Both the position numbers and the translations under genes were made by a program. The notes beneath the pieces are model-generated. The model made no database searches. It was not told the origin of the DNA and saw nothing but the letters and a program-made list of their open reading frames with translations. A DNA stretch of 64,000 nt, taken from contig CAKOXW010000001.1 of assembly GCA_934130375.1 (NCBI GenBank), forward strand, positions 136,067 to 200,066, given 5' to 3'. Every line of letters begins with the position of its first letter. Within the stretch, counting starts at the first letter, position 1. This DNA comes from an uncultured Bacilli bacterium (GTDB taxonomy: Bacteria; Bacillota_I; Bacilli_A; RF39; UBA660). Positions 5,539 to 57,442 of this stretch are shown here, in pieces.

Positions 5539-5567
5539 TGTGTAGTCTTGGTCTTAAATGATTTTTA

Positions 5568-16795: not shown

Positions 16796-16816
16796 GTGTA
16801 TTCTTGGGCTTAAGTA
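16796..16816 (+). repeat. Copy of the recurrent 3' motif GTGTATTCTTGGGCTTAAGTA
   Basis: One of five near-identical copies (5538, 16796, 26731, 31717, 49547) following AT-rich terminators. Confidence 0.6.
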
Positions 16817-17045
16817 ATAAAATTTACAAAAATTAAAAAAATTACAAATTTATTAAATTTGTAACTTTTTTATAACTAATTTATTAAATTTGCTTAAACA
16901 GATTTCTAAAATTGTAAGTGTTTTTTACTTTAAAACCTTAAAATTTGCGATTTGACATATATTTTTAAGTTGATATGATGACATTGGAATACTTAACATT
17001 AGGTGATTGCCTTCTTGATTTTTAGTGATGAAGGGAGGTATGTGT

Positions 17046-17114
17046 ATGGTCAAAGATGTAACAGTCTTATTACTTGTAATTATCCTTCTTCTATTTGTGG
17101 TACGCTACTTATAG
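17046..17114 (+). CDS. Putative 22-aa hydrophobic peptide MVKDVTVLLLVIILLLFVVRYL (type I toxin-like / small membrane protein)
   Basis: AAGGGAGG SD 7 nt upstream of the ATG. Single TM-length hydrophobic core. Lies in an otherwise ORF-free 520-bp intergenic region. Followed by hairpin cctaatc-ataag-gattagg (17130-17148). Confidence 0.3.
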   Translation: MVKDVTVLLLVIILLLFVVRYL

Positions 17115-17313: not shown

Positions 17314-18633
17314 ATGAAGAAGAAAAATGGGTTTACTTTGGTTGAATTACTAGCAGTAATAGTAATACTCGCAATTATCTTAGTTATTGCGGTACCTAAA
17401 ATTACTGACACAATAAAAAATTCAAAGATTGCATCATTTGAGAGTAGTGCGAAAACTATTGCTGCGCAAGCAGAAAAGAAGAAAATGGAGAAAGAAATAC
17501 TAGAAGATACTGGAAGTATTAGTTGTAGTGACATTGTTAAATTAAATGATACTGATTATGGTAATTGTAGTATAACTTTCGATGGTAATACTGCTAAGGT
17601 TAGTTTAGTAGGAAAGGGTAAGTTTGAAGGACTATCAGTAATAAATGGTACTAAAGATAATGCAACTGCTGGTGAAGTTAAAATGCCTGAATATGGTAAA
17701 GGAACAACATTTATAAAGGCTTTATATGATAGTGATATATTAAGAAAAACAAATGGGCTTAAGAAAGACAATACAAGTGATGCAAATATAAGGTATGAAG
17801 GAGCAAATCCAAATAACTATGTATCATTTAATGATGAGCTATGGAGAATAATAGGAGTATTTGGTGATAACATTAAGTTAGTTAGAAGTGAACAATTAGG
17901 TAAATTATCGTGGGATAGTTCGGATTATTCAGTTAATATTGGTGATGGAGTAAATGAGTGGAGCCAAGCCGATTTAAAAGAATATTTAAATACAATGTAT
18001 TATGGCGGAACTAGTGTAACATGTTATGGCGGAAGAAGAAATGTAACTACGACATGTCCAAGTGGTAACATAAATTCATCTGCAAAGTCAATGATAAATA
18101 ATTATACTTGGAATACAGGTGCAATAAATTATGATGATACAACAATTGTAAATCAAGAAACATTTGCACTAAATACTGTACCATTTTATAATGCTGAAAG
18201 AGGTTCAGTAACTGGTAAAATATGCACAAGTGGAGATTTCTGTAATGACACAATTGAAAGAAAAACAACATGGCCGGGTTATGTAGCATTACCATATACA
18301 ACTGATTGGGCATATGCAAGTAGTGAGACTGCATGTGCAACTAATATGAAAGATGGTTTTGTTGCTGATACCTTGAATGTTGATAATATGACATGTAAGA
18401 AAAATAACTGGATGCATCATGGTAGTACAGTGAATGAAGGTATGTGGATGCTTTCGCCTGGTGCTTATTCCGTCTATGCTTACTACGTGTGGAGTGTCTC
18501 TGGTTCTGGAAATGTCTACAAAGCTTTTGCGGATATTGCACTTCCCGTTTTCCCATCCGTATATCTAAATACTGAAGTCAAAATAACAAGTGGAAGTGGT
18601 TCAAGTAGTGACCCATATATACTTGGTGTATAG
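17314..18633 (+). CDS. Modular type IV pilin-like protein 1 (prepilin N-terminus + ~110-aa pilin module + ~330-aa Cys/Trp-rich C-terminal module)
   Basis: MKKKNGFTLVELLAVIVILAIIL is a class III signal peptide with G|FTLVE. N-terminal ~110 aa are about 60% identical to the two paralogues at 31967 and 49825. RBS AGAAAGGGTG. Confidence 0.7.
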   Translation: MKKKNGFTLVELLAVIVILAIILVIAVPKITDTIKNSKIASFESSAKTIAAQAEKKKMEKEILEDTGSISCSDIVKLNDTDYGNCSITFDGNTAKVSLVGKGKFEGLSVINGTKDNATAGEVKMPEYGKGTTFIKALYDSDILRKTNGLKKDNTSDANIRYEGANPNNYVSFNDELWRIIGVFGDNIKLVRSEQLGKLSWDSSDYSVNIGDGVNEWSQADLKEYLNTMYYGGTSVTCYGGRRNVTTTCPSGNINSSAKSMINNYTWNTGAINYDDTTIVNQETFALNTVPFYNAERGSVTGKICTSGDFCNDTIERKTTWPGYVALPYTTDWAYASSETACATNMKDGFVADTLNVDNMTCKKNNWMHHGSTVNEGMWMLSPGAYSVYAYYVWSVSGSGNVYKAFADIALPVFPSVYLNTEVKITSGSGSSSDPYILGV

Positions 18634-26731: not shown

Positions 26732-26754
26732 GTGTATTCGTGGGCTTAAATAAT
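26731..26754 (+). repeat. Copy of recurrent 3' motif TGTGTATTCGTGGGCTTAAATAAT
   Basis: Motif family, see 16796. Confidence 0.55.
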
Positions 26755-26876: not shown

Positions 26877-27764
26877 ATGAATTACTATGATGAAATAAAA
26901 AAAGAATTAGTAAATAATGAAATATATAAAAGAGTAAAAGATTATTCAAAGAACAGACATGATTTAAGTACGTATTACAATGTAGGTAAATTATTAAGTG
27001 AGGCAGGTAAGAGTTATGGTGATGGCATTATTAAGGAATATAGTAAAAGACTTACAAATGAATTAGGGAAAGGTTATGGCATTAGTACATTAAAAAATAT
27101 GAGAAAATATTATATATTATCAAAAAGCCAGGCACTGCCTGGCCTTTTGACATGGTCACATTATTGTGAATTGTTTTCAATAAAAAATATAGATGAGATT
27201 AGATATTATATAGATATTTCTATTTCACAAAATTTAAGTTATAGAGAATTAAGAAATAGAATAAAATCAAAAGAATATGAAAGATTAGATAATAAAACAA
27301 AAGAAAAACTAATTAATAAAGAAGATACTATAGTAAGTGATTTTATAAAAGACCCAATTATAATTAATAATAGTTTAAATTATATAGAAATATCGGAAAG
27401 AGTATTAAAGGAATTAATATTAAATGATTTAGATAATTTTCTTAATCAATTAGGTAATGGTTTTTGCTATATTGGTTCTGAATACAAGATTAAGATTGGA
27501 AATACTTATAATTATATAGATATATTACTTTATAACATTGAATTTAATTGTTATGTAGTTGTAGAGTTGAAAGTAACTGAATTAAGAAAAGAGCATATTG
27601 GACAAATTGAAATATATATGAATTATATTGATAAAAATGTAAAAAAAATTGGTATGGATAATACAATTGGTTTAATAATATCTAAGTATAAAAATGAGTA
27701 TATAATTGAATACTCAAGTGATAGTCGTATTAAAGTAACTACTTATTTGATAAAGCAGAATTAA
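26877..27764 (+). CDS. DUF1016 / YhcG-like PD-(D/E)XK nuclease family protein
   Basis: C-terminal GFCYIGSEYKI...YIDILLYNIEFNCYVVVELKVTEL...GQIEIYMNYID matches the YhcG restriction-endonuclease-like core. RBS AAAGGAGGA. Confidence 0.65.
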   Translation: MNYYDEIKKELVNNEIYKRVKDYSKNRHDLSTYYNVGKLLSEAGKSYGDGIIKEYSKRLTNELGKGYGISTLKNMRKYYILSKSQALPGLLTWSHYCELFSIKNIDEIRYYIDISISQNLSYRELRNRIKSKEYERLDNKTKEKLINKEDTIVSDFIKDPIIINNSLNYIEISERVLKELILNDLDNFLNQLGNGFCYIGSEYKIKIGNTYNYIDILLYNIEFNCYVVVELKVTELRKEHIGQIEIYMNYIDKNVKKIGMDNTIGLIISKYKNEYIIEYSSDSRIKVTTYLIKQN

Positions 27765-31716: not shown

Positions 31717-32288
31717 ATATGTATTCTTTGACTTAAGTAGTTTATATTATATATTTATAAATTTATATGTTAAAGATTATAAGTTTTATATTATTTTGAA
31801 TACAAGTAACATCCCCTAATAATTAGTTAAAAAGTGGTTGTTTTGATATAAAATGTTAAAACTTTTGTAAATTTTCGTCAAAAATAGACCTAAAAAACGC
31901 CCTCGCCCATTGCCAAATGGGGGGGGGTGTATAGTATAATAACCTTGTATAATAGAGGAGGAAATTATGAAGAAAAAGAAGGGTTTTACTTTAGTAGAAT
32001 TATTAGCAGTAATAGTTATTTTGGCAGTTATACTAATTATTGCAATGCCAAAAATAAGTGATGTAATTAAGAATTCTAAGGAAGCATCATTAGAAACAAC
32101 TGCAAAATTAATAGCAAGTCAGGCAGAAAAGAAATATACTGAAAATCAAGTATTAGATGGTTCAACTACAATAAAATGTAGTGATGTTGCTAAGATAAGT
32201 GATACTGATTATGAAAGTTGTAATATTACTTTTGATAGTAAAGGTAATGCTAAAGTAACAATAGTAGGTAAGGGTAAGTTTGAAGGTT
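31717..32288 (+). repeat. Cassette B: ~570 bp (recurrent 3' motif + leader + promoter + first ~107 codons of pilin-like gene 2), near-identical to 49547-50146
   Basis: Aligned by eye: shared leader ...ttatattattttgaatacaagtaacatcc...gatataaaatgttaaaa...tttgtaaattttcgtcaaaaatag..cgcc..cgcccattgccaaatggggggggg...aggaggaaat and nearly identical N-terminal coding. Confidence 0.7.
31919..31927 (+). repeat. G9 homopolymer between the TTGCCA (31910-31915) and TATAAT (31935-31940) hexamers
   Basis: Counted directly. Spacer is 19 nt. Confidence 0.8.
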
Positions 32289-32875
32289 TACAAGTAGTAG
32301 ATGGAACTAAAGATAGTGCAAAAGCAAGCGCTAAGAAAGAAATTGTTGAAACTGCTGCTAAGTATTTTAGTTATGAAGAAGTGGAAGGCGGTATGTCAAT
32401 AACAGGTTATAATATTGCTGGAGGAACTGATGTAGTAATACCATCACAAATAGATGGTAAGACAGTTGTTGCTATTGGAGATTTGGCATTTACAACAAGA
32501 GGTATTATACCAACACTTACTGCTTATAATAATGATTATAAAGTAAGTTTATTAAGTTATAATTCTAATAATAATTATGTGGTAAAACCGCTTGTAACAG
32601 ATCTTAAAGGTTTAGGAATAACTTCGGTAGTGATACCTAATACAGTAACAAGCATAGGTAATAATGCATTTGCTGATAATAAGTTAACTAATATTACAAT
32701 ACCATCAAGTGTTATTGAAATAAGTCTTGAAGCGTTTTACGGCAATCAAATAAGTTCAATTACATTTCCTGATACACCAATCACTCTTGGCTGTAGAGTA
32801 TTTGCTCGTAATCCAATTTCTGCAGATGAAACTTATAGTTTACCAAGTAATGTTACTTATGTATGTGTAAATTGA
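31967..32875 (+). CDS. Modular type IV pilin-like protein 2 (pilin module + BspA-type leucine-rich-repeat module)
   Basis: MKKKKGFTLVELLAVIVILAVIL prepilin N-terminus. C-terminal repeats ...IPNTVTSIGNNAFADNKLTNITIPSSVIEISLEAFYGN... are typical of BspA-like LRR surface proteins. RBS GGAGGA. Confidence 0.7.
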   Translation: MKKKKGFTLVELLAVIVILAVILIIAMPKISDVIKNSKEASLETTAKLIASQAEKKYTENQVLDGSTTIKCSDVAKISDTDYESCNITFDSKGNAKVTIVGKGKFEGLQVVDGTKDSAKASAKKEIVETAAKYFSYEEVEGGMSITGYNIAGGTDVVIPSQIDGKTVVAIGDLAFTTRGIIPTLTAYNNDYKVSLLSYNSNNNYVVKPLVTDLKGLGITSVVIPNTVTSIGNNAFADNKLTNITIPSSVIEISLEAFYGNQISSITFPDTPITLGCRVFARNPISADETYSLPSNVTYVCVN

Positions 32876-32947
32876 TATTTTAATTTAGATTGTTAAAGAG
32901 ATAGATTTCTATCTTTTTTTCTTGTATAATAATTATGGAGGTAAAGT

Positions 32948-45504: not shown

Positions 45505-47613
45505 ATGGCATTTGTATATAAAAAAGAAAAAAATTCATTAATAGTAGATGACCCAATATACGGAGAAATAATTGTTCCTTATCCTTTTTCTGAAATAGTT
45601 TTAACAAAAGAAATGCAAAGATTATCAGGGATATCACAAAATGGTTTTTCACAACTTGAATATAAAGAACTTGAGAATAATGATAGATTAAGTCATAGCG
45701 TTGGTGCTTTTTACGTAATGTCATTATTTTTGAATAGATTAGAAGAAATCTTAAAAAGTTTTAATATTAAACTTAGCAAAGATGATAAAGATATTGCGTT
45801 ATGTTCTATGTTACTGCATGATATAGGGCACGGACCATTTTCTCATACATTAGAATTGGTAACTAATTACTCACATGAAAAACGTACTACAGACATTTTG
45901 CTTGGAGATACAGAGGTTAATAAAGCAATAACAAAGTTCTTTGGAGAGAAAAAAGTTAAAAAGATTGCAAGTTTTATAGCAGAGATTAATGATAGTCAAG
46001 AATTAGGTACGGATAGTTTTACAAAATTGCTTAATAATTTAGTTTCTTATCAATTAGATGCGGATAGAATTGATTATTTAATTCGTGATGCATATTATGT
46101 TGGTATTTCTTCTGCAATAGATTTAAAGAAAATAATTTCAAGTATGGGTGTTGTTGTAAATAATAATCAAGAATATGAATTACTAATTGATAGAAAGGGT
46201 CTTGCAAGTGTAGAAAATGTTTTATTGCAAAGATACCAAATGTATAGAGATGTGTATTTAAGCCCAATTTCAGTTTTAGGAGATTATATATTTAAAAAGA
46301 TTATTGAACGATATAGAGATAATACAAAGTTGCATACTTTACCTGTTTCAAAAAGTTTAAAAACATTAGTTAGTGATACAATGGTAAGTAATTTAAATGA
46401 TTTTTTAGAGATGAAAGATGAAGATTTTAATATTTCTTTTAAAATGCTATCTAAATCAAATTTAGATACTGTTATGTCTTACTTATGTGATTTTGATAAT
46501 ATAAAAGACTATATTTTAATTAAGAATGATGTTTCTGAAGAAAAAATCAAAACAAAATTAAAAGAAATATTTGGTGATATTGATTTAAGTGATACATTAT
46601 CAATAATAAGTATTGATACTAAAACAAAATTATATAAAAAGGAACAAAAATTAAATGTTCAAAATGGAAATAGAATTATGGATTTAACTGAATGCACAAA
46701 TTTAATAAGGCCACAAGAAGAATTAGAAAATACATATATTTTCTTTAACCCTGAATTACTTAGATTAGAACTTGGTTTAAGTGATAAAGAATTTAAAAAA
46801 TATGAAAGCGAGGTAATAAAAATGATTGAAGAATTAAATAAAAAACCTGAAGAATTTGAATTAAAATATATAATTGATGAAAAAGATACTGAAGACTTAG
46901 ATAAAGAAACTTTGATTAATAAGATTATTTCTGTTTTTAAGACTAATGGTTTTAAAATAGTTTCAGTAACAGAAAAACAAAATAATGATGAATATTATGA
47001 TACTAGAGATTTAAAATTATATAAAAATGGTGGGTCACTTAGAATAAGAAAGGTTGAACAAAAAGGAAAAGAGAAAATAAAAGCCACTTGCAAAATGCCA
47101 CTTGGAAAAGGTGAAGTTTATTCATCAAGAAGTGAAATTGAAGAAACATTAGAAGATGATAGTTTTGATGAATTTATGCAAAAGATGATTAGTTCTAAAG
47201 TGAATGTTAACTTTGATGACATATTAAGATTTCCTATATTAAATTCTCGTACAAAAAGAAAAGATATAGTATTAGATAAAAACGGAGTTCAAGTATGTTT
47301 ATCATTTGATACTACCAAGTATACTAACCATCTTTTAAATGATGCTACAACAACTGATAAAATGATTGAGATTGAAGCAATTGGAGAACTTAACAATAGA
47401 ATTATTCTTAATGAAATACATGAATTTATCGCATCTTCTTTTAGTAGTTTAGAAGTAAATAAACAAAGTAAATACGAAAGAGGTATTAATCGTACTTTAC
47501 AACTATACAATAATTTAGAAGAAAACCAATCTATGGAAGAGTATTTTTCAATACCAACTTATGCATCTCTATCTAATGCTGATGCTTTAGTTAAAAAACT
47601 AAAACATGTTTAG
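45505..47613 (+). CDS. Fusion protein: HD-domain dNTP triphosphohydrolase-like N-terminal region (aa 1-~430) + CYTH (triphosphate tunnel metalloenzyme) C-terminal domain (aa ~450-660)
   Basis: HD: RLSHSVGAFYV...LLHDIGHGPFSHTLE...DADRIDYLIRDAYYVG. CYTH: EFELKYII (ExExK), YYDTRDLKLYKNGGSLRIRK, MIEIEAIGE. RBS ACGGAGG. Confidence 0.7.
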   Translation: MAFVYKKEKNSLIVDDPIYGEIIVPYPFSEIVLTKEMQRLSGISQNGFSQLEYKELENNDRLSHSVGAFYVMSLFLNRLEEILKSFNIKLSKDDKDIALCSMLLHDIGHGPFSHTLELVTNYSHEKRTTDILLGDTEVNKAITKFFGEKKVKKIASFIAEINDSQELGTDSFTKLLNNLVSYQLDADRIDYLIRDAYYVGISSAIDLKKIISSMGVVVNNNQEYELLIDRKGLASVENVLLQRYQMYRDVYLSPISVLGDYIFKKIIERYRDNTKLHTLPVSKSLKTLVSDTMVSNLNDFLEMKDEDFNISFKMLSKSNLDTVMSYLCDFDNIKDYILIKNDVSEEKIKTKLKEIFGDIDLSDTLSIISIDTKTKLYKKEQKLNVQNGNRIMDLTECTNLIRPQEELENTYIFFNPELLRLELGLSDKEFKKYESEVIKMIEELNKKPEEFELKYIIDEKDTEDLDKETLINKIISVFKTNGFKIVSVTEKQNNDEYYDTRDLKLYKNGGSLRIRKVEQKGKEKIKATCKMPLGKGEVYSSRSEIEETLEDDSFDEFMQKMISSKVNVNFDDILRFPILNSRTKRKDIVLDKNGVQVCLSFDTTKYTNHLLNDATTTDKMIEIEAIGELNNRIILNEIHEFIASSFSSLEVNKQSKYERGINRTLQLYNNLEENQSMEEYFSIPTYASLSNADALVKKLKHV

Positions 47614-47729: not shown

Positions 47730-48371
47730 ATGAATATATTGCTTGTTGAAGATAATCTAGGTATACAAAAAGGACTTAGTTATTCACTTACTAAAAATAA
47801 CTACAATGTAATAGTTAAATCTAGTATAAAAGATACTAAAACATATCTTGAAGATAATAAACCAAATCTAATTATATTAGATATCGCGTTACCAGATGGT
47901 AGTGGTCTAGATTTATATAAAGATTATATTAAATCCTTAAATATAAATACCATTTTCTTAACTGCAGATGATAATATAGACAATATTGTTTTCGCGCTTG
48001 ATACCGGGGCATGTGACTATATTACTAAGCCTTTTGAAGTTAGAGTACTTATTGCTAAAATAAATAGAATTTTATCTAATAAAAGTCTTGTTATAAACGA
48101 TATAGTATTTGATATTAATAAAATGGAAGTATTTAAGAATGACAAGGTAGTAAGTTTAACTAGTTTAGAGAAAAAAATACTTTTCTTATTAGTGTCTAAT
48201 AAAAATAAAGTAGTTACAAGAGAGAACTTGATAAATTATATATGGGAACTTACTGGTAACGATGTATACGATAATACGATTACAGTTTATTTAAAAAGAA
48301 TTAGAGAAAAACTTGATACTGATATAATAAAAACAATAAAAGGTATAGGATATAGAATAGATGAAGAGTAG
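47730..48371 (+). CDS. OmpR-family response regulator
   Basis: Receiver (LLVEDN, LDIALPDGSG, KPF) plus winged helix. Confidence 0.8.
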   Translation: MNILLVEDNLGIQKGLSYSLTKNNYNVIVKSSIKDTKTYLEDNKPNLIILDIALPDGSGLDLYKDYIKSLNINTIFLTADDNIDNIVFALDTGACDYITKPFEVRVLIAKINRILSNKSLVINDIVFDINKMEVFKNDKVVSLTSLEKKILFLLVSNKNKVVTRENLINYIWELTGNDVYDNTITVYLKRIREKLDTDIIKTIKGIGYRIDEE

Positions 48372-49542
48372 TAATATAAAGTACATAATTTTATTCTCCA
48401 TAGTATTATTTATTACAGCCTTAATAAATGTGTGCGAGTATAATACTTATAGAATTAACTATAATAACAAAATTTCAAGTATAATTGAATTAGTAGTAAG
48501 TAAGTATCAAGATATTAGTAAAGAAGAGATATATAATATTATTAATAATAAAAGTGATAAGTCTAATGTATTAAAAGAATATGGAATATATGATGATATA
48601 GATAACTTAGTAATTGAGAATGAGAATAAATATACATTTTATTTAGTAGTTAATTTAATGTTAGTTGTTATATTATTTATAATATTCTATATAATTATAT
48701 TTAAAGATAAGTATTTATTTAATAAAAATATTAATAAATTAACTAAATACTTTAGTGAGATAAATAATGGTAATTATGATATAGATATTAATGATAATAA
48801 AGAGAATAATTTATCTATATTAAAAAATGAGATATATAAAACAACTATAATGCTTAAAGAACAAGCAAGTAATTCTAAGAAGGATAAGGAAGAATTAAAA
48901 GTAATGTTAGAAGATATATCACATCAATTAAAGACCCCTCTAACAGCAATTAATATTTATATAGATAACCTACTTGATAATGATATAGATTATAAAACTA
49001 GAAATGAATTTCTAAAAGAAATAAAGAAAGATATAAATAATATGAATTTCTTAATATTAAATTTACTTAAACTATCAAAGTTTGATACTAATACTATAAA
49101 GTACGAGATTAAGAAGTACAAGGTAGATAGTATTATTAGTAAAGTAATTAATAATTTAAGTTATTTAAGTGATTTAAAGAATATAAATATAAATGTTATT
49201 GGTGATAAGAATATAGTATTAAATTGTGATTATAGATGGGAAGTAGAAGCTATTAGTAATATAGTCAAGAATGCTTTAGAACATTGTTATTCTAAAGTAG
49301 AAATTAGTTATAAAGAATATAAATCATATGTAGAGATAAGAATTATTAATGATGGAGATACTATCAATAAGAAAGATATTAAGCATATATTTGATAGATT
49401 TTATAAAATATCTAATGATAAAGATAGTATTGGTATAGGTTTAGCGTTATCTAAAAGTATTATAGAAAAAGATAATGGTAAAATTAATGTTATAAGTGAT
49501 AATAATAGTACAATATTTGAAATAAAGTATTATAAATATTAG
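48361..49542 (+). CDS. Sensor histidine kinase (two TM segments flanking a ~65-aa extracytoplasmic loop)
   Basis: H-box ISHQLKTPLTAINIY, HATPase_c (NDGDTI, GIGLAL). Overlaps the RR stop. Confidence 0.75.
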   Translation: MKSSNIKYIILFSIVLFITALINVCEYNTYRINYNNKISSIIELVVSKYQDISKEEIYNIINNKSDKSNVLKEYGIYDDIDNLVIENENKYTFYLVVNLMLVVILFIIFYIIIFKDKYLFNKNINKLTKYFSEINNGNYDIDINDNKENNLSILKNEIYKTTIMLKEQASNSKKDKEELKVMLEDISHQLKTPLTAINIYIDNLLDNDIDYKTRNEFLKEIKKDINNMNFLILNLLKLSKFDTNTIKYEIKKYKVDSIISKVINNLSYLSDLKNININVIGDKNIVLNCDYRWEVEAISNIVKNALEHCYSKVEISYKEYKSYVEIRIINDGDTINKKDIKHIFDRFYKISNDKDSIGIGLALSKSIIEKDNGKINVISDNNSTIFEIKYYKY

Positions 49543-49546
49543 TTTT

Positions 49547-50146
49547 ATATGTATTCTTGGGCTTTATTAGTTTATATTACATTTATAAAAGAATTACAAA
49601 AAAGTAATTCTTTTAAACTTATATATTAAAGATTATATAGTTTTATATTATTTTGAATACAAGTAACATCCAGTTAAAAATAGCTAAAAAGTAGTTATTT
49701 GATATAAAATGTTAAAAACTTTGTAAATTTTCGTCAAAAATAGGCCTGAAAAACGCCTCCGCCCATTGCCAAATGGGGGGGGGTGTTATGCTATAATAAT
49801 TACATAAAATAGAGGAGGAAATTTATGAAGAAAAAGAAGGGTTTTACTTTAGTGGAATTATTAGCAGTAATAGTTATTTTGGCAGTTATACTAATTATTG
49901 CAATGCCAAAAATAAGTGATGTAATTAAGAATTCTAAAGAAGCATCATTAGAAACAACTGCAAAGTTAATAGCAAGTCAAGCAGAGAAGAAATATACTGA
50001 AAATCAAGTATTAGATGGTAGTAGTACAATAAAATGTAGTGATGTTGCTAAGATAAATGATGCTGACTATGAAAGTTGTAATATTACTTTTGATGATAAG
50101 GGTAATGCAAAAGTATCAATAGTAGGTAAGGGTAAGTTTGAAGGTA
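49547..50146 (+). repeat. Cassette C: ~600 bp near-identical to cassette B (31717-32288)
   Basis: See cassette B. Encoded N-termini differ at only a handful of residues over ~107 aa. Confidence 0.7.
49775..49783 (+). repeat. G9 homopolymer between TTGCCA (49766-49771) and TATAAT (49792-49797)
   Basis: Counted directly. Spacer is 20 nt. Confidence 0.8.
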
Positions 50147-50898
50147 TGGCTGTATGCAATGCTAATAAGAATAGTGCATCTATATCTAGTGATTGTTCAA
50201 CAAATGCATCTTATTTTACATATGAGGACACTACTATAGTAACTAACGTTATTGTTGAAGATGCGAATAAGTGCAAGAGTTATATTCAAACAAAGCATTT
50301 AACTGAAGAACAAGCAACAACGTTGTGTACTGAAGGTTCAATAACAATTGGTGAATCTACTGGTTCGTTAAAAGATTTAGTTGTAGTTGGTGCGATACCA
50401 TCAAGTGATTATGAGACAGTAGGATTAAGAATAGAAACAAAAGATGGTATATCAATAACTGGTTATAATATAGAAGGAGGAACTGATGTAGTAATACCAT
50501 CACAAATAGATGGCAAGACAGTTGTTGCTATTGGAGATAATACAAGTGATGGTCTAGGAATAACTTCAGTGGTAATACCAAATTCAGTGACAAGCATAGG
50601 TATGAATGCATTTAGATGGAACAAATTAACAAATGTAACAATTCCATCAAGTGTTAAAACAATAGGTCATAGTGCATTTAGAGGGAACAAATTAACAAAT
50701 GTAACAATTCCTAGTAGTGTTATTTCAATAGATTACTATGCTTTTAATAGTAATCCAAATATTGTAATTACCAATAATTCGAGTATTGAAAATACACAAG
50801 ATGTTTGGGATAAAATTTTAGGAATAGACGGGTCATGTTCTCCGAAAGTAACTATAACAAATAATATTATTGAAATAGGTGTGGGACCTAATTGCTAA
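49825..50898 (+). CDS. Modular type IV pilin-like protein 3 (pilin module + Cys-containing linker + BspA-type LRR module)
   Basis: Same prepilin N-terminus. Shares internal blocks SITGYNIEGGTDVVIPSQIDGKTVVAIGD and GLGITSVVIPNSVTSIG with protein 2 (mosaic). LRR-type repeats NKLTNVTIPSSV. Confidence 0.7.
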   Translation: MKKKKGFTLVELLAVIVILAVILIIAMPKISDVIKNSKEASLETTAKLIASQAEKKYTENQVLDGSSTIKCSDVAKINDADYESCNITFDDKGNAKVSIVGKGKFEGMAVCNANKNSASISSDCSTNASYFTYEDTTIVTNVIVEDANKCKSYIQTKHLTEEQATTLCTEGSITIGESTGSLKDLVVVGAIPSSDYETVGLRIETKDGISITGYNIEGGTDVVIPSQIDGKTVVAIGDNTSDGLGITSVVIPNSVTSIGMNAFRWNKLTNVTIPSSVKTIGHSAFRGNKLTNVTIPSSVISIDYYAFNSNPNIVITNNSSIENTQDVWDKILGIDGSCSPKVTITNNIIEIGVGPNC

Positions 50899-50971
50899 AG
50901 TGAGTAATAAATCTCACTTTTTAAATTGATATTAATAATTTAAAATGGTATAATATTGTTGGGTGGTAAAG

Positions 50972-51736
50972 ATGAAAGATATAAATGTATTAGTAAATGG
51001 TGGTATTAATGTAAATGGTTCTTTGGAATTGTTTTCTAATATTGAAACTTATGAGGAAAATCTTAATAATTTTTTAAATAGTATTAAGGAAAGAATTATT
51101 AGTTTAAATGAGTATAAAGAGAAAAATGATATGCATAATTATAATATTTTAGTGGATGCATTAAAGTTTGAAACTAAGTTACTTGGTTTTAATTCTTTAT
51201 CTGAAATATGTAATAAGCAAACTGTTGCTAGTAAGAATAATTATGTTACTTTTGTTACTGATAATTTTAATGAATTAGTTACTGAATTAAATAGGGTAAT
51301 TATGCTTTGTTTAAGTTATTTTGGTATTAGTGATACAAGTGATTATATTGTTTCTTTCGGTTCTGTTAAGAGTGATGATGCAATATTAGTAGTTGATGAT
51401 TCTGATTTAATTAGAAATTTTATTAGACACATGCTTGATAGTTCTTATGAAATTAAGGTTGCTAAGGATGGTGTTGAAGCATTATATATTTTGTCTAATC
51501 AAAAAATATCTGGTATGTTCTTGGACCTTGAAATGCCTAATGTTAATGGATTTGAAGTTTTAAATTATATGGATAAAAATAATATGTTTGAAAATATTCC
51601 GGTTACTGTAATAACTGGTGTAGATGGTAAAGCGGAATTAGATAGGTTATCTATGTACCCAATTACTGATGTGTTGTTAAAACCTTTTAATGAAAAATCA
51701 TTAAAGGATGCGATTGATAAGATGTTAAAAAAATAG
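50972..51736 (+). CDS. Response-regulator receiver protein with N-terminal HPt-like/helical domain
   Basis: C-terminal CheY-like receiver (ILVVDDSDLIR...FLDLEMPNVNGFEV...KPF). N-terminal ~130 aa helical; HPt assignment tentative. Confidence 0.5.
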   Translation: MKDINVLVNGGINVNGSLELFSNIETYEENLNNFLNSIKERIISLNEYKEKNDMHNYNILVDALKFETKLLGFNSLSEICNKQTVASKNNYVTFVTDNFNELVTELNRVIMLCLSYFGISDTSDYIVSFGSVKSDDAILVVDDSDLIRNFIRHMLDSSYEIKVAKDGVEALYILSNQKISGMFLDLEMPNVNGFEVLNYMDKNNMFENIPVTVITGVDGKAELDRLSMYPITDVLLKPFNEKSLKDAIDKMLKK

Positions 51737-56009: not shown

Positions 56010-56603
56010 ATGAGTGATTTAGAAAAGATTTTAAGTTTAGTACAAAAAAATGATGGTTATATTACAACAAAAGAAGTGGTGGAAAACGGGTTAAATAAAA
56101 TGGCATTAAAAAGATTGTGTGATGGAGGTTTATTAGAAAGAGTATCAACCGGTTATTATTCTTTGCCTAATATTTTTAACGATGAATATTATAAGATTAT
56201 ATCAAAAAGTAAAAATGCTGTTTTTTCTTATGCTACATCTTTGTTTTTGCATGATTTATCAGACCGAACGCCATTATATTTTGATATAACCGTACCACGT
56301 GGTTATGGCGGACCTTTACAAAATATTGAGACAGTCTCACTTCATTATGTAGATAATAGTCTTTTAAACTTAGGAATGGAAATAATTAAATCTCCATTTG
56401 GGATGAACATTAAATGTTATGATGTTGAAAGGACTATGTGTGATATTATTAAAGATAGAAATCATATGGATAAAGAAATTTATTCTAAGGCTTTAAAATG
56501 GTATGCAGAAAGGAAGGATAAAGATATGTTAAAACTTGCTAAATACTCAAAAAGATTAAATATAGAAAAAGAAGTTGTAGAAATTATGCAATTAATTTTA
56601 TGA
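56010..56603 (+). CDS. AbiEi-type antitoxin/transcriptional regulator (type IV TA / abortive infection)
   Basis: ~200-aa protein with N-terminal wHTH-like region directly upstream of, and overlapping, an AbiEii-family nucleotidyltransferase gene. RBS GAGGTG. Confidence 0.6.
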   Translation: MSDLEKILSLVQKNDGYITTKEVVENGLNKMALKRLCDGGLLERVSTGYYSLPNIFNDEYYKIISKSKNAVFSYATSLFLHDLSDRTPLYFDITVPRGYGGPLQNIETVSLHYVDNSLLNLGMEIIKSPFGMNIKCYDVERTMCDIIKDRNHMDKEIYSKALKWYAERKDKDMLKLAKYSKRLNIEKEVVEIMQLIL

Positions 56604-57442
56604 TGAATAGCGATAAATTAAATGCGCTTATTAAAAAGCGTGCTAATGGAAGCAACGATATGTCATTGCATCTTCATCAAATGTTTTTCTTTGAACATGT
56701 TTTAATGAGACTTGAAAAAAGTAAATATAGGGATAATATTATTTTAAAAGGAGGAGTATTACTTTCTTCAATTATCGGGAGTGATATGAGAACTACAAAA
56801 GATATAGATGCTACACTGAAAAGTATTGCTCTAAATGAAGAAACGATTAGAGATATATTTGAAGAAATATTATCTATTAATATAGATGATGGAGTTTCAT
56901 TTAAAATTGAAAATATTAAAGATATTAGATTAGAAGATGAATATGGTGGTTATCGAATAAATGTTTATGGAAAATTTGATAAATTAAAAACATATTTCTT
57001 TATTGAAGTAACAACAGGTGATGTAATTACTCCAAGAGAAATCGATTATAAATATAATTCTATTTTTGAAGATAAAATCATCAATATTATGGCATATACG
57101 ATTGAAACTATAATTGCAGAAAAACTAGAGAGTATTATTAGTAAAAATATTTCTACAACAAGGGCTAAAGATTTTTATGATATGTATATAATAGTAAATA
57201 AACACAAAGAAAAAATAAATAAAGATACTTTAATTATGGCAGTAAAAAGAACTTTTAACCATAGAAATACTAGATACGATATTGAATATTTAAAAGAAGT
57301 TTATAATCTTTTAAAAGATAGTGCAATATTAAAAGAACTTTTTAATAACTATAGTAAGAAACTCGATTATGCTAAAAATGTAAAATACGAAGAAACAATT
57401 GCTGCTATAAATGAAGTTATTAATATTTTAGAAACGAATTAG
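56600..57442 (+). CDS. AbiEii/AbiGii family nucleotidyltransferase toxin (DUF1814)
   Basis: KGGVLLSS...RTTKDIDAT nucleotidyltransferase signature. 4-nt overlap with the upstream gene. Confidence 0.7.
   Translation: MMNSDKLNALIKKRANGSNDMSLHLHQMFFFEHVLMRLEKSKYRDNIILKGGVLLSSIIGSDMRTTKDIDATLKSIALNEETIRDIFEEILSINIDDGVSFKIENIKDIRLEDEYGGYRINVYGKFDKLKTYFFIEVTTGDVITPREIDYKYNSIFEDKIINIMAYTIETIIAEKLESIISKNISTTRAKDFYDMYIIVNKHKEKINKDTLIMAVKRTFNHRNTRYDIEYLKEVYNLLKDSAILKELFNNYSKKLDYAKNVKYEETIAAINEVINILETN

Follow-up and report, generated by a model that had tools for sequence, protein, structure and literature searches.

Families of surface proteins that recombine and vary in phase are textbook material in Neisseria, Mycoplasma, Treponema and Campylobacter, and for gut commensals most of what is known of such families concerns the invertible promoters of Bacteroidales. 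One example is the opa family of Neisseria, where multiple complete, dispersed paralogues are switched individually by repeats and acquire mosaic alleles through recombination between copies. Opa is also mentioned in work on Treponema pallidum, where poly-G promoter tracts have been described for the tpr genes and tp0126, and where the tract of tprL in vivo is mostly G9 alongside minority lengths of G8 to G11 (PMC7864442). In Neisseria meningitidis, a homopolymer lies within the promoter spacer of porA (poly-G) and fetA (poly-C) (PMC5320596), and in the vlp genes of Mycoplasma hyorhinis, insertions and deletions in a poly-A promoter tract switch transcription, as far as the findings of Citti and Wise (1995) are summarised in PMC10502178. 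Here, we describe a 64-kb stretch of contig CAKOXW010000001.1 from an uncultured Bacilli bacterium (the whole of which is called the window), where two prepilin-type genes, g2 and g3, carry a duplicated 5' unit. This duplication is probably the shared 5' unit of a recombining and presumably phase-variable multigene family of modular cassettes, in which a type IV pilin module is joined to leucine-rich repeat (LRR) adhesin modules.

The window holds three prepilin-type genes (g1, g2 and g3), all on the + strand (Table 1). The regions 31717-32288 and 49547-50146, which an earlier note on this DNA had described as aligning almost base for base, were compared by MAFFT alignment, which confirmed the duplication. 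The description is apt for the first 321 coding bases, of which 304 are identical (94.7%), with 5 amino-acid changes in 107 by tblastn, and overstated for the leader, where 219 of 253 aligned bases between a recurrent 17-nt motif and the ATG are identical (86.6%) and the 30 gap columns are mostly due to one 26-nt hairpin insertion in g3 (approximately 49584-49610). As the same note had it, both regions open with the motif (at 31720 and 49550), share the leader and a G9 tract, encode about 107 residues with few substitutions, and lose their identity abruptly at KGKFEG; directly past GKGKFEG (32287 and 50145) it falls to about 57% with many gaps. The 3' ends, however, are not unrelated as had been proposed, since both are LRR_5 modules with 49% amino-acid identity over 146 residues, and a second shared block of 98 nt, 92% identical and encoding SITGYNIEGGTDVVIPSQIDGKTVVAIGD, lies at 32385-32482 and 50441-50538. 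Over the 107 codons that g2 and g3 share, their synonymous divergence (dS) is 0.14, and in comparison with g1 it is about 2.1 (saturated), and the likeness of g2 and g3 is therefore due to recent shared ancestry and not to protein-level constraint alone; the ratio of nonsynonymous to synonymous divergence (dN/dS) of the shared module is about 0.24. Both structures with both junctions recur in several independent metagenome assemblies, so the duplication is not an assembly artefact. The g1 gene is a more distant paralogue, with 67% nucleotide identity in its pilin module, a different C-terminal domain that lacks a Pfam match, no G tract, and a leader unrelated to those of g2 and g3.

At the protein level, g1, g2 and g3 begin with MKKK(K/N)G (MKKKKG in g3) followed by FTLVELLAVIVIL, which together make up the short basic leader ending in Gly, the hydrophobic N-terminus and the Glu at mature position 5 of a type IV pilin, and the module scores 33 bits against PF07963 (cutoff 21.2) and 28 bits against TIGR02532 (cutoff 16.3). 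In an AlphaFold 2 model of g3 built from 56 homologues (mean predicted local distance difference test score, pLDDT, 85), a long alpha1 helix of 55 residues (9-63) lies on a small beta-sheet (strands 82-89, 95-101 and 109-113), as in the type IV pilin fold, and is followed by a compact alpha/beta middle module and then by an LRR solenoid. The profile of the N-terminal module (N-module) matches solved pilins, including 8pfb (PilE1) and 8qqj (PilA5), over the alpha1 region only. In Foldseek searches, the g3 solenoid resembled BspA-type LRR proteins, with TpLRR (6mlx) and LRR proteins from the cell surface of gut bacteria among the hits, and the whole g3 model was matched through its LRR part alone, so that the pilin module is backed by sequence profiles instead. 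Both g2 and g3 therefore join an N-terminal pilin module (PF07963) to a non-pilus C-terminal domain (PF13306), which is the architecture of a modular pilin. We take IPR026906 to be the InterPro entry for LRR_5. This entry is among the 15 commonest extra domains of modular type IV pilins (Raynaud et al., 2021; PMC8179133). More than 5000 proteins combine N_methyl and LRR_5 at E<1e-10, nearly all of them unnamed gut-metagenome sequences, and the fusion partners of the N-module include LRR_5, dockerin, the Listeria-Bacteroides repeat and g1-type domains. The break always falls after GKGKF(E/D/A)G, and the sharp identity boundary between g2 and g3 is therefore a family-wide domain junction; further breakpoints fall at other module junctions.

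Evidence for recombination came from comparing each locus between strains that share the same flanking genes, with divergence given as mismatches per aligned nucleotide and the 5' unit set against the 3' module by Fisher's test. At the g2 locus, the window differs from L172 at 26/2665 positions in the flanks and 0/639 in the 3' module and terminator, as opposed to 19/248 in the leader and 19/321 in the first 321 coding nucleotides (38/569 for the 5' unit; p=2e-13). At the g3 locus, the corresponding values against L171 are 17/2646, 9/805, 25/280 and 15/321 (40/601 for the 5' unit; p=2e-8). Divergence at the same locus is thus 6-8% in the 5' unit and 0-1% in the flanks and 3' module, and the 5' units of one locus in two strains are as different as those of two loci in one strain. 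In the g3 allele of L171, about 100 nt running from the left arm of the G9 hairpin through the promoter into the first codons are identical to g2 of the window, and another patch matches L012, while the first 30 codons of the g2 allele of L172 match the L011 paralogue. When eight 5' coding units were compared, 259 of the 496 informative pairs of sites failed the four-gamete test, and a permutation test resembling the pairwise homoplasy index (PHI-like) gave p=0.0004. Homologous recombination or gene conversion has acted repeatedly between members of the family, and this keeps their 5' units both alike and mosaic. In the earlier note, gene conversion or cassette shuffling was suggested to place variable 3' modules onto a constant 5' unit; the recombination is borne out by the strain divergence, the patches and the PHI-like test, but the 5' unit is itself the most recombined segment.

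Recombination at the junctions brings linkers, middle modules, LRR blocks and tails into new combinations as well. At the g3 locus of L176, the N-module and tail are identical, and the LRR block is gone, with a second copy of the middle module in its place. The L177 cassette, which lies behind gatB in a different sample, combines an N-module, a linker and a middle module that are g3-like with more LRR units and a g2-like tail. Near-identical N-modules carry either linker type in protein fragments from other samples, and P0004 and P0013 pair the middle module with the other linker type. Several contigs (L008-L010 and L178) stop inside the 5' unit, as is expected where a repeat breaks short-read assemblies. 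The family thus comprises several complete genes whose promoter and export unit at the 5' end is conserved and whose presumably surface-exposed 3' parts diverge, and exchange between the copies gives rise to mosaics, as in families of the opa/vlp type.

Only two runs of at least eight G occur in the 64 kb, where 0.06 would be expected, and both are G9 tracts (31919-31927 and 49775-49783) at the same position of a putative promoter with the layout TTGCCA-AAT-G9-N7/8-TATAAT. TTGyCA and TATAAT are the best-conserved elements of the leader across diverged paralogues. A scan for consensus promoters with 16-18 nt spacers left the G9 promoters unflagged because their spacers exceed 18 nt. In other cassettes, the tract at the homologous position is G5 (L011, with a 16-nt spacer), G8 (L025) or G10 (L177), and in L012 it is interrupted (GGAGGGGG). 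L174 has G8 where L172 and L173 have G9, in sequence that is otherwise identical. A homopolymer placed within the promoter in this way recalls porA, fetA, vlp and tpr. In a related species (L015-L029 and L040; about 62% amino-acid identity), the TTGACA and TG(G/A)TATAAT boxes of the pilin genes are strictly conserved, and the spacers between them are hypervariable in sequence and in length (14, 16 or 19 nt), with one containing G5CGG.

Similar tracts were found more widely. In 0.93 Mb from other, more distant uncultured Bacilli metagenome-assembled genomes (MAGs), 11 of 19 tracts of at least seven G are followed by a prepilin-type gene within 200 nt, although positions so placed make up 2.1% of the sequence (p=2e-14). 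The prepilin-associated loci, with G7 to G12, are L033, L066, L100, L105, L133, L142, L147, L156, L164, L166 and L168, and further G-tract loci were noted in L074, L075, L081, L087, L117 and L125; the other tracts precede genes for small membrane-anchored proteins or for proteins with a SipW/TasA-like signal. Wherever a TTGACA-like -35 can be made out, the tract extends from there into a -10-like hexamer, giving total spacers of about 15-19 nt, and homologous promoters in other Bacilli differ by one G. Across 1.06 Mb of loci, all 40 of the runs of at least seven G are on the strand of the pilin gene, with none on the opposite strand. On balance, slipped-strand control of promoter spacing seems the most likely role of the G tract, and phase variation of these genes is likely, if unproven. 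For gut Firmicutes or RF39, nothing specific on families joining pilins to LRR modules, or on pilin promoters with poly-G tracts, was found in the literature searched.

Each cassette is placed on its own at the end of an unrelated housekeeping operon, and strains differ by the gain or loss of entire cassettes. In L004 and L005, nusB is followed by 92 nt and then ppa, with no pilin gene between them, so that the g2 cassette is absent. The left border of this indel lies exactly at the 17-nt motif TGTATTCTTGGGCTTAA and the right border just past the T-run of the terminator. With up to two mismatches allowed, the motif has five matches in the window as opposed to 0.30 expected, all on the + strand, and each directly follows the T-run that ends the upstream gene or its terminator. 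Together with about 60 nt of conserved leader, it heads cassettes in L011, L044, L172 and L177; it also precedes a DUF1016/YhcG nuclease gene, and another copy stands alone between rbfA and vanY. The motif could serve in recombination or as the site of a regulator, or it could be what remains of a cassette. A promoter-like region, ribosome-binding site (RBS), ATG and terminator of its own accompany each family member examined, and the additional family loci found in other strains, after gatB and elsewhere, likewise have their own promoter and RBS.

Four other accounts of these data can be weighed against a recombining family. The likeness of g2 and g3 could result from a plain and recent segmental duplication, in which the promoter and pilin module were copied once to another LRR gene with no ongoing exchange, and youth and purifying selection would then explain the similar 5' ends. 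The low dS and dN/dS of the shared module agree with this, as does a boundary that coincides with a structural domain boundary common to the whole family. A single copying event does not account for a 5' unit that is 6-10 times more diverged between strains than its own flanks and 3' module, for patches matching other paralogues, for the numerous four-gamete incompatibilities and the PHI-like result, or for module swaps at the same locus, which together make this explanation very unlikely. We regard as the least credible of the four the model put forward in the earlier note, where one or a few expression sites are fed by silent promoterless donors, as in Neisseria pilE/pilS. The sharp identity boundary, the mosaic 3' regions and the differing 3' modules found at one locus across strains are what such a system would produce, and pilE/pilS likewise involves type IV pilin genes with a conserved 5' end and a variable 3' end that is diversified by homologous recombination. 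In Neisseria, however, a single expression locus is fed by pilS donors that lack a promoter and are truncated at the 5' end, whereas here all copies are complete. A tblastn search of the 64 kb with all three C-terminal parts found no promoterless 3' cassettes, truncated donors included, and matched only the three complete genes, which is also more than a single expression locus; members in this and related strains have their own promoter, RBS and ATG; and the 5' unit, which in that model would be the constant expression site, is the segment most often overwritten.

The remaining two accounts concern the leader and the borders of the cassette. The leader may be an RNA regulatory element within a transcript that starts upstream, with the hairpin serving as terminator, attenuator or stability element, and with the G run structural and held at nine to pair with a pyrimidine arm, not to slip. 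The G9 hairpin of g3 (CGCCyyCGCCCATT-GCCA-AATG9TG) reaches -26.5 kcal/mol (z -4.4) as + strand RNA and -14.5 kcal/mol (z -1.0) on the opposite strand, a difference that depends on G-U pairs; its left arm varies among paralogues mainly by C/T, the G9 is nearly invariant over strains at both loci, and leader conservation spans about 250 nt. Such a hairpin could stop transcription that runs on from the upstream operon, or it could affect a transcript initiated upstream. At gathering thresholds, Rfam found only a tRNA in the whole window, and a permissive scan of the leader gave only SpF66 sRNA at 24.6 bits (gathering threshold 42), which was treated as chance; the leader therefore contains no riboswitch or leader RNA of a known family. 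A terminator scan found none after the G9 hairpin, which has no U-run past it. The prepilin poly-G tracts of other lineages, as read by eye, have no obvious C-rich arm and abut -10 boxes; the best-conserved leader elements are those of the putative promoter; and L011 has a long left arm with only G5, which implies tract contraction. An RNA element is therefore unlikely, if still the most credible of the four. Ranking just behind it is the possibility that the cassettes are mobile elements inserting site-specifically, with the 17-nt motif as recombination site and the 5' likeness produced by copying during transposition or integration. This would fit the presence or absence of the g2 cassette with a left border exactly at the motif, the occurrence of the motif at the head of pilin cassettes at at least four loci and before the DUF1016/YhcG gene, and the single orientation of all copies directly after a T-run. 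Neither a recombinase nor a transposase was found in or beside the cassettes, and there are no terminal inverted repeats and no target-site duplication visible at the borders. Furthermore, the empty site holds 41 unrelated nucleotides, which indicates replacement and not clean insertion, and the motif persists in L004 despite deletion of the YhcG gene.

Several observations also weigh against a recombining, phase-variable pilin family as set out here. At the two window loci, G9 is found in 15 of 16 independent contigs, so the consensus length is stable, and the lone G8 comes from a short MEGAHIT contig and may have arisen in assembly. With nine G, the distance from TTGCCA to either candidate -10 falls outside 16-18 nt, so that the common state would be OFF or low, or the promoter is other than the one proposed, and related promoters that have no G tract also have 19-nt spacers. 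The promoter assignment and the poly-G switch are both predictions. The far greater stability of the G9 hairpin as + strand RNA, together with the C/T variation of its left arm, hints at an RNA-level role. Allelic exchange between strains (transformation) and conversion between paralogues within a genome are not fully separable with these data. A scan of roughly 45 open reading frames (ORFs) of the window revealed no T2SSE, T2SSF or Peptidase_A24 domain, nor any gene for type IV pilus or Com machinery or for a prepilin peptidase, and filament assembly is therefore only predicted.

Compared with the systems described above, the organisation appears to follow an opa/vlp logic, with complete genes, a conserved 5' end, a repeat that may switch each gene and recombination between copies, and not that of pilE/pilS. 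The resemblance to opa lies in complete dispersed paralogues, per-gene repeats and recombination mosaics; in opa, however, a coding CTCTT repeat shifts the reading frame in place of a promoter tract, and the Opa proteins are beta-barrel outer-membrane proteins of a diderm. In porA, fetA, tp0126 and tpr, the promoter of a surface-protein gene has a run of G or C between its -35 and -10 or next to them, as it does here. The hosts of porA, fetA, tp0126 and tpr are diderm pathogens with experimentally mapped promoters, whereas here the host is an uncultured gut Firmicute, and the putative promoter elements, recognised by their conservation, are separated by 19-20 nt, outside the optimum. As summarised in PMC10502178, the vlp system likewise has several complete genes, each with a homopolymer tract in its promoter, and a conserved promoter and export signal followed by a variable, surface-exposed 3' part. 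According to that summary, vlp differs in having a poly-A tract, a lipoprotein signal peptide and clustered genes, as opposed to poly-G, a type IV prepilin module and genes scattered singly after housekeeping operons, and its tract switches transcription, which is here a prediction. In Streptococcus sanguinis, PilB (with a von Willebrand factor A domain) and PilC (lectin) share with g2 and g3 a small N-terminal pilin module, a short linker and an adhesion module (PMC8179133), but they are single-copy and lie within the pil operon, whereas the genes described here are multi-copy, recombining, strain-variable and outside any pilus operon. The parts of the mechanism, namely modular pilins, homopolymer promoter switches and mosaic surface-protein families, are each known elsewhere; their combination was not found described for this bacterial group in the literature searched.

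Table 1. Location of the prepilin-type genes, their cassettes and associated elements in the 64-kb window.
Feature	Position	Strand	Basis or remark
g1	17314-18633	+	439 aa; older paralogue
g2	31967-32875	+	302 aa
g3	49825-50898	+	357 aa
All copies of the 17-nt motif	5541-5557, 16797-16813, 26733-26749, 31720-31736, 49550-49566	+	Motif scan
17-nt motif about 500 nt upstream of g1	16797-16813	+	Motif scan
17-nt motif at 5' edge of g2 cassette	31720-31736	+	Motif scan, indel border
Whole g2 cassette, indel polymorphism replacing 41 nt	31721-32920	+	Comparison with L004 and L005
g2 hairpin including G9	31897-31930	+	-25.6 kcal/mol, z -4.45
g2 putative promoter	31910-31940	+	TTGCCA 31910-31915; 19-nt spacer with G9 31919-31927; TATAAT 31935-31940
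g2 codons 1-107, constant pilin module	31967-32287	+	Domain profiles, tblastn
g2 linker (LQVVDGTKDSAK...) and LRR module	32288-32875	+	Locus-specific; same between strains
TGTATTCTTGGGCTTTA, 17-nt motif at 5' edge of g3 cassette	49550-49566	+	Motif scan
g3 leader, promoter region and RBS	49567-49824	+	87% identity to g2 leader
g3 small leader hairpin, within the 26-nt insertion	GAATTAC 49591-49597, GTAATTC 49604-49610	+	-5.1 kcal/mol, z -5.6; not in g2
g3 G+C-rich hairpin, pyrimidine-rich left arm CGCCTCCGCCCATT pairing with AATGGGGGGGGGTG	49752-49787	+	TTGCCA part stem, part loop
g3 putative -35-like hexamer TTGCCA	49766-49771	+	TTGyCA in all close paralogues
g3 G9 in putative spacer, 20 nt from TTGCCA to TATAAT	49775-49783	+	Homopolymer count
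g3 putative -10 hexamer TATAAT, preceded by TGC (extended -10)	49792-49797	+	Conserved in paralogues
g3 codons 1-107, MKKKKG + FTLVELL prepilin leader, pilin module	49825-50145	+	PF07963, TIGR02532
g3 linker (MAVCNANKN...) and middle module (VIVEDANKCKSYIQ...ATTLC...DYETVGL)	50146-50440	+	Middle module missing from g2
g3 second high-identity block shared with g2	50441-50538	+	92%
g3 BspA-type LRR units, C-terminal tail and stop codon	50539-50898	+	PF13306, E 3e-18
g3 terminator-like hairpin GTGAG...CTCAC followed by T5	50899-50923	+	Sequence, inverted-repeat pair

The window has a G+C content of 26%, and its proteins are matched exactly in human-gut metagenome assemblies from Hadza and other cohorts, as found by exact-protein look-ups. 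Its genes are mostly co-oriented and of housekeeping type (nusA, infB, rbfA, rplT, mutS, nusB, ppa, dut, dnaE, a gyrB-like gene, ftsW and genes for penicillin-binding proteins), and this set, which includes the penicillin-binding proteins and ftsW, identifies the host as a walled Firmicute. The host is a walled, uncultured, Bacilli-type bacterium of the human gut. Among the matches listed, the pilin module has its nearest GTDB relatives in MAGs labelled uncultured Bacilli, Tenericutes or Clostridium sp., with at most 61% identity, and no GTDB species genome matched GCCCATTGCCAAATGGGGG in an exact scan.

Several further features of the window and its relatives were observed. Between the 17-nt motif and g1 lie a promoter-like TTGACA-N16-TATGAT (approximately 16954-16981) and a 24-codon hydrophobic mini-ORF with a strong RBS (MCMVKDVTVLLLVIILLLFVVRYL; 17040-17114). 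The g3 cassette is flanked by a pair of genes for an OmpR-type response regulator and a HisKA kinase (47730-49542) and by an orphan response-regulator gene (50963-51736). Upstream of this two-component system, the gene for a 702-aa HD/CYTH protein (45505-47613) is replaced in L007 and L009 by a 210-aa CYTH-only gene. The loop of the small g3 leader hairpin is AAAAAA in the window and GTTTTT in L171 and L176, which is nearly the reverse complement and looks like palindrome-mediated loop inversion. In L004, the YhcG/DUF1016 gene, which encodes a PDDEXK nuclease and lies between rplT and def (26877-27764), is deleted from near codon 8 to a point shortly ahead of the def terminator, apparently between short AAAAAGAATTAG-like repeats, and the upstream motif and leader are left in place; the idea that the motif borders every indel was rejected, as the motif stays in L004 after this loss. 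A gene for an AbiEii-type nucleotidyltransferase toxin (type IV toxin-antitoxin / abortive infection) is located amid cell-wall genes at 56600-57442.

Taken together, these cassettes share one layout, ordered from the 17-nt motif through the leader, the putative promoter with its poly-G spacer, the RBS and the prepilin leader peptide to a pilin module of about 100 aa ending in GKGKFEG, and from there through a linker, one or more optional middle modules, BspA-type LRR units and a tail to the terminator. The proteins would be cut by a prepilin peptidase and then be displayed along a type IV filament or at its tip, or be anchored in the membrane by the alpha1 helix, where they would present their LRR adhesin modules. 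Slippage in the poly-G tract would shift the spacing between -35 and -10, so that each gene may be switched or tuned independently. A wider proposal, which is tentative and on present evidence rather doubtful, is that uncultured low-G+C gut Bacilli (the 'Bacilli / Tenericutes / Clostridium sp.' MAGs) share a contingency-locus system, in which type IV pilin modules would act as a universal and recombination-prone 5' 'adaptor' for a large repertoire of adhesin modules that shuffle, each gene would have a stochastic poly-G switch, and placement at operon ends would depend on a dedicated mechanism that recognises or carries the 17-nt motif; no contingency-locus system of this kind was found in the literature searched.

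These findings indicate that modular pilins can form large, shuffling families and not just single, operon-encoded minor pilins. The logic of recombining surface-protein families would now extend to abundant uncultured gut Firmicutes, where it is built on a type IV pilin scaffold that bears adhesin modules of BspA-type LRRs. Should the poly-G tracts indeed act as switches of these genes, they would generate surface heterogeneity at the strain level and within hosts, and would help account for the breaks in metagenome assemblies at these loci, and tract length together with module combination would then serve as a marker for tracking adaptation in people.

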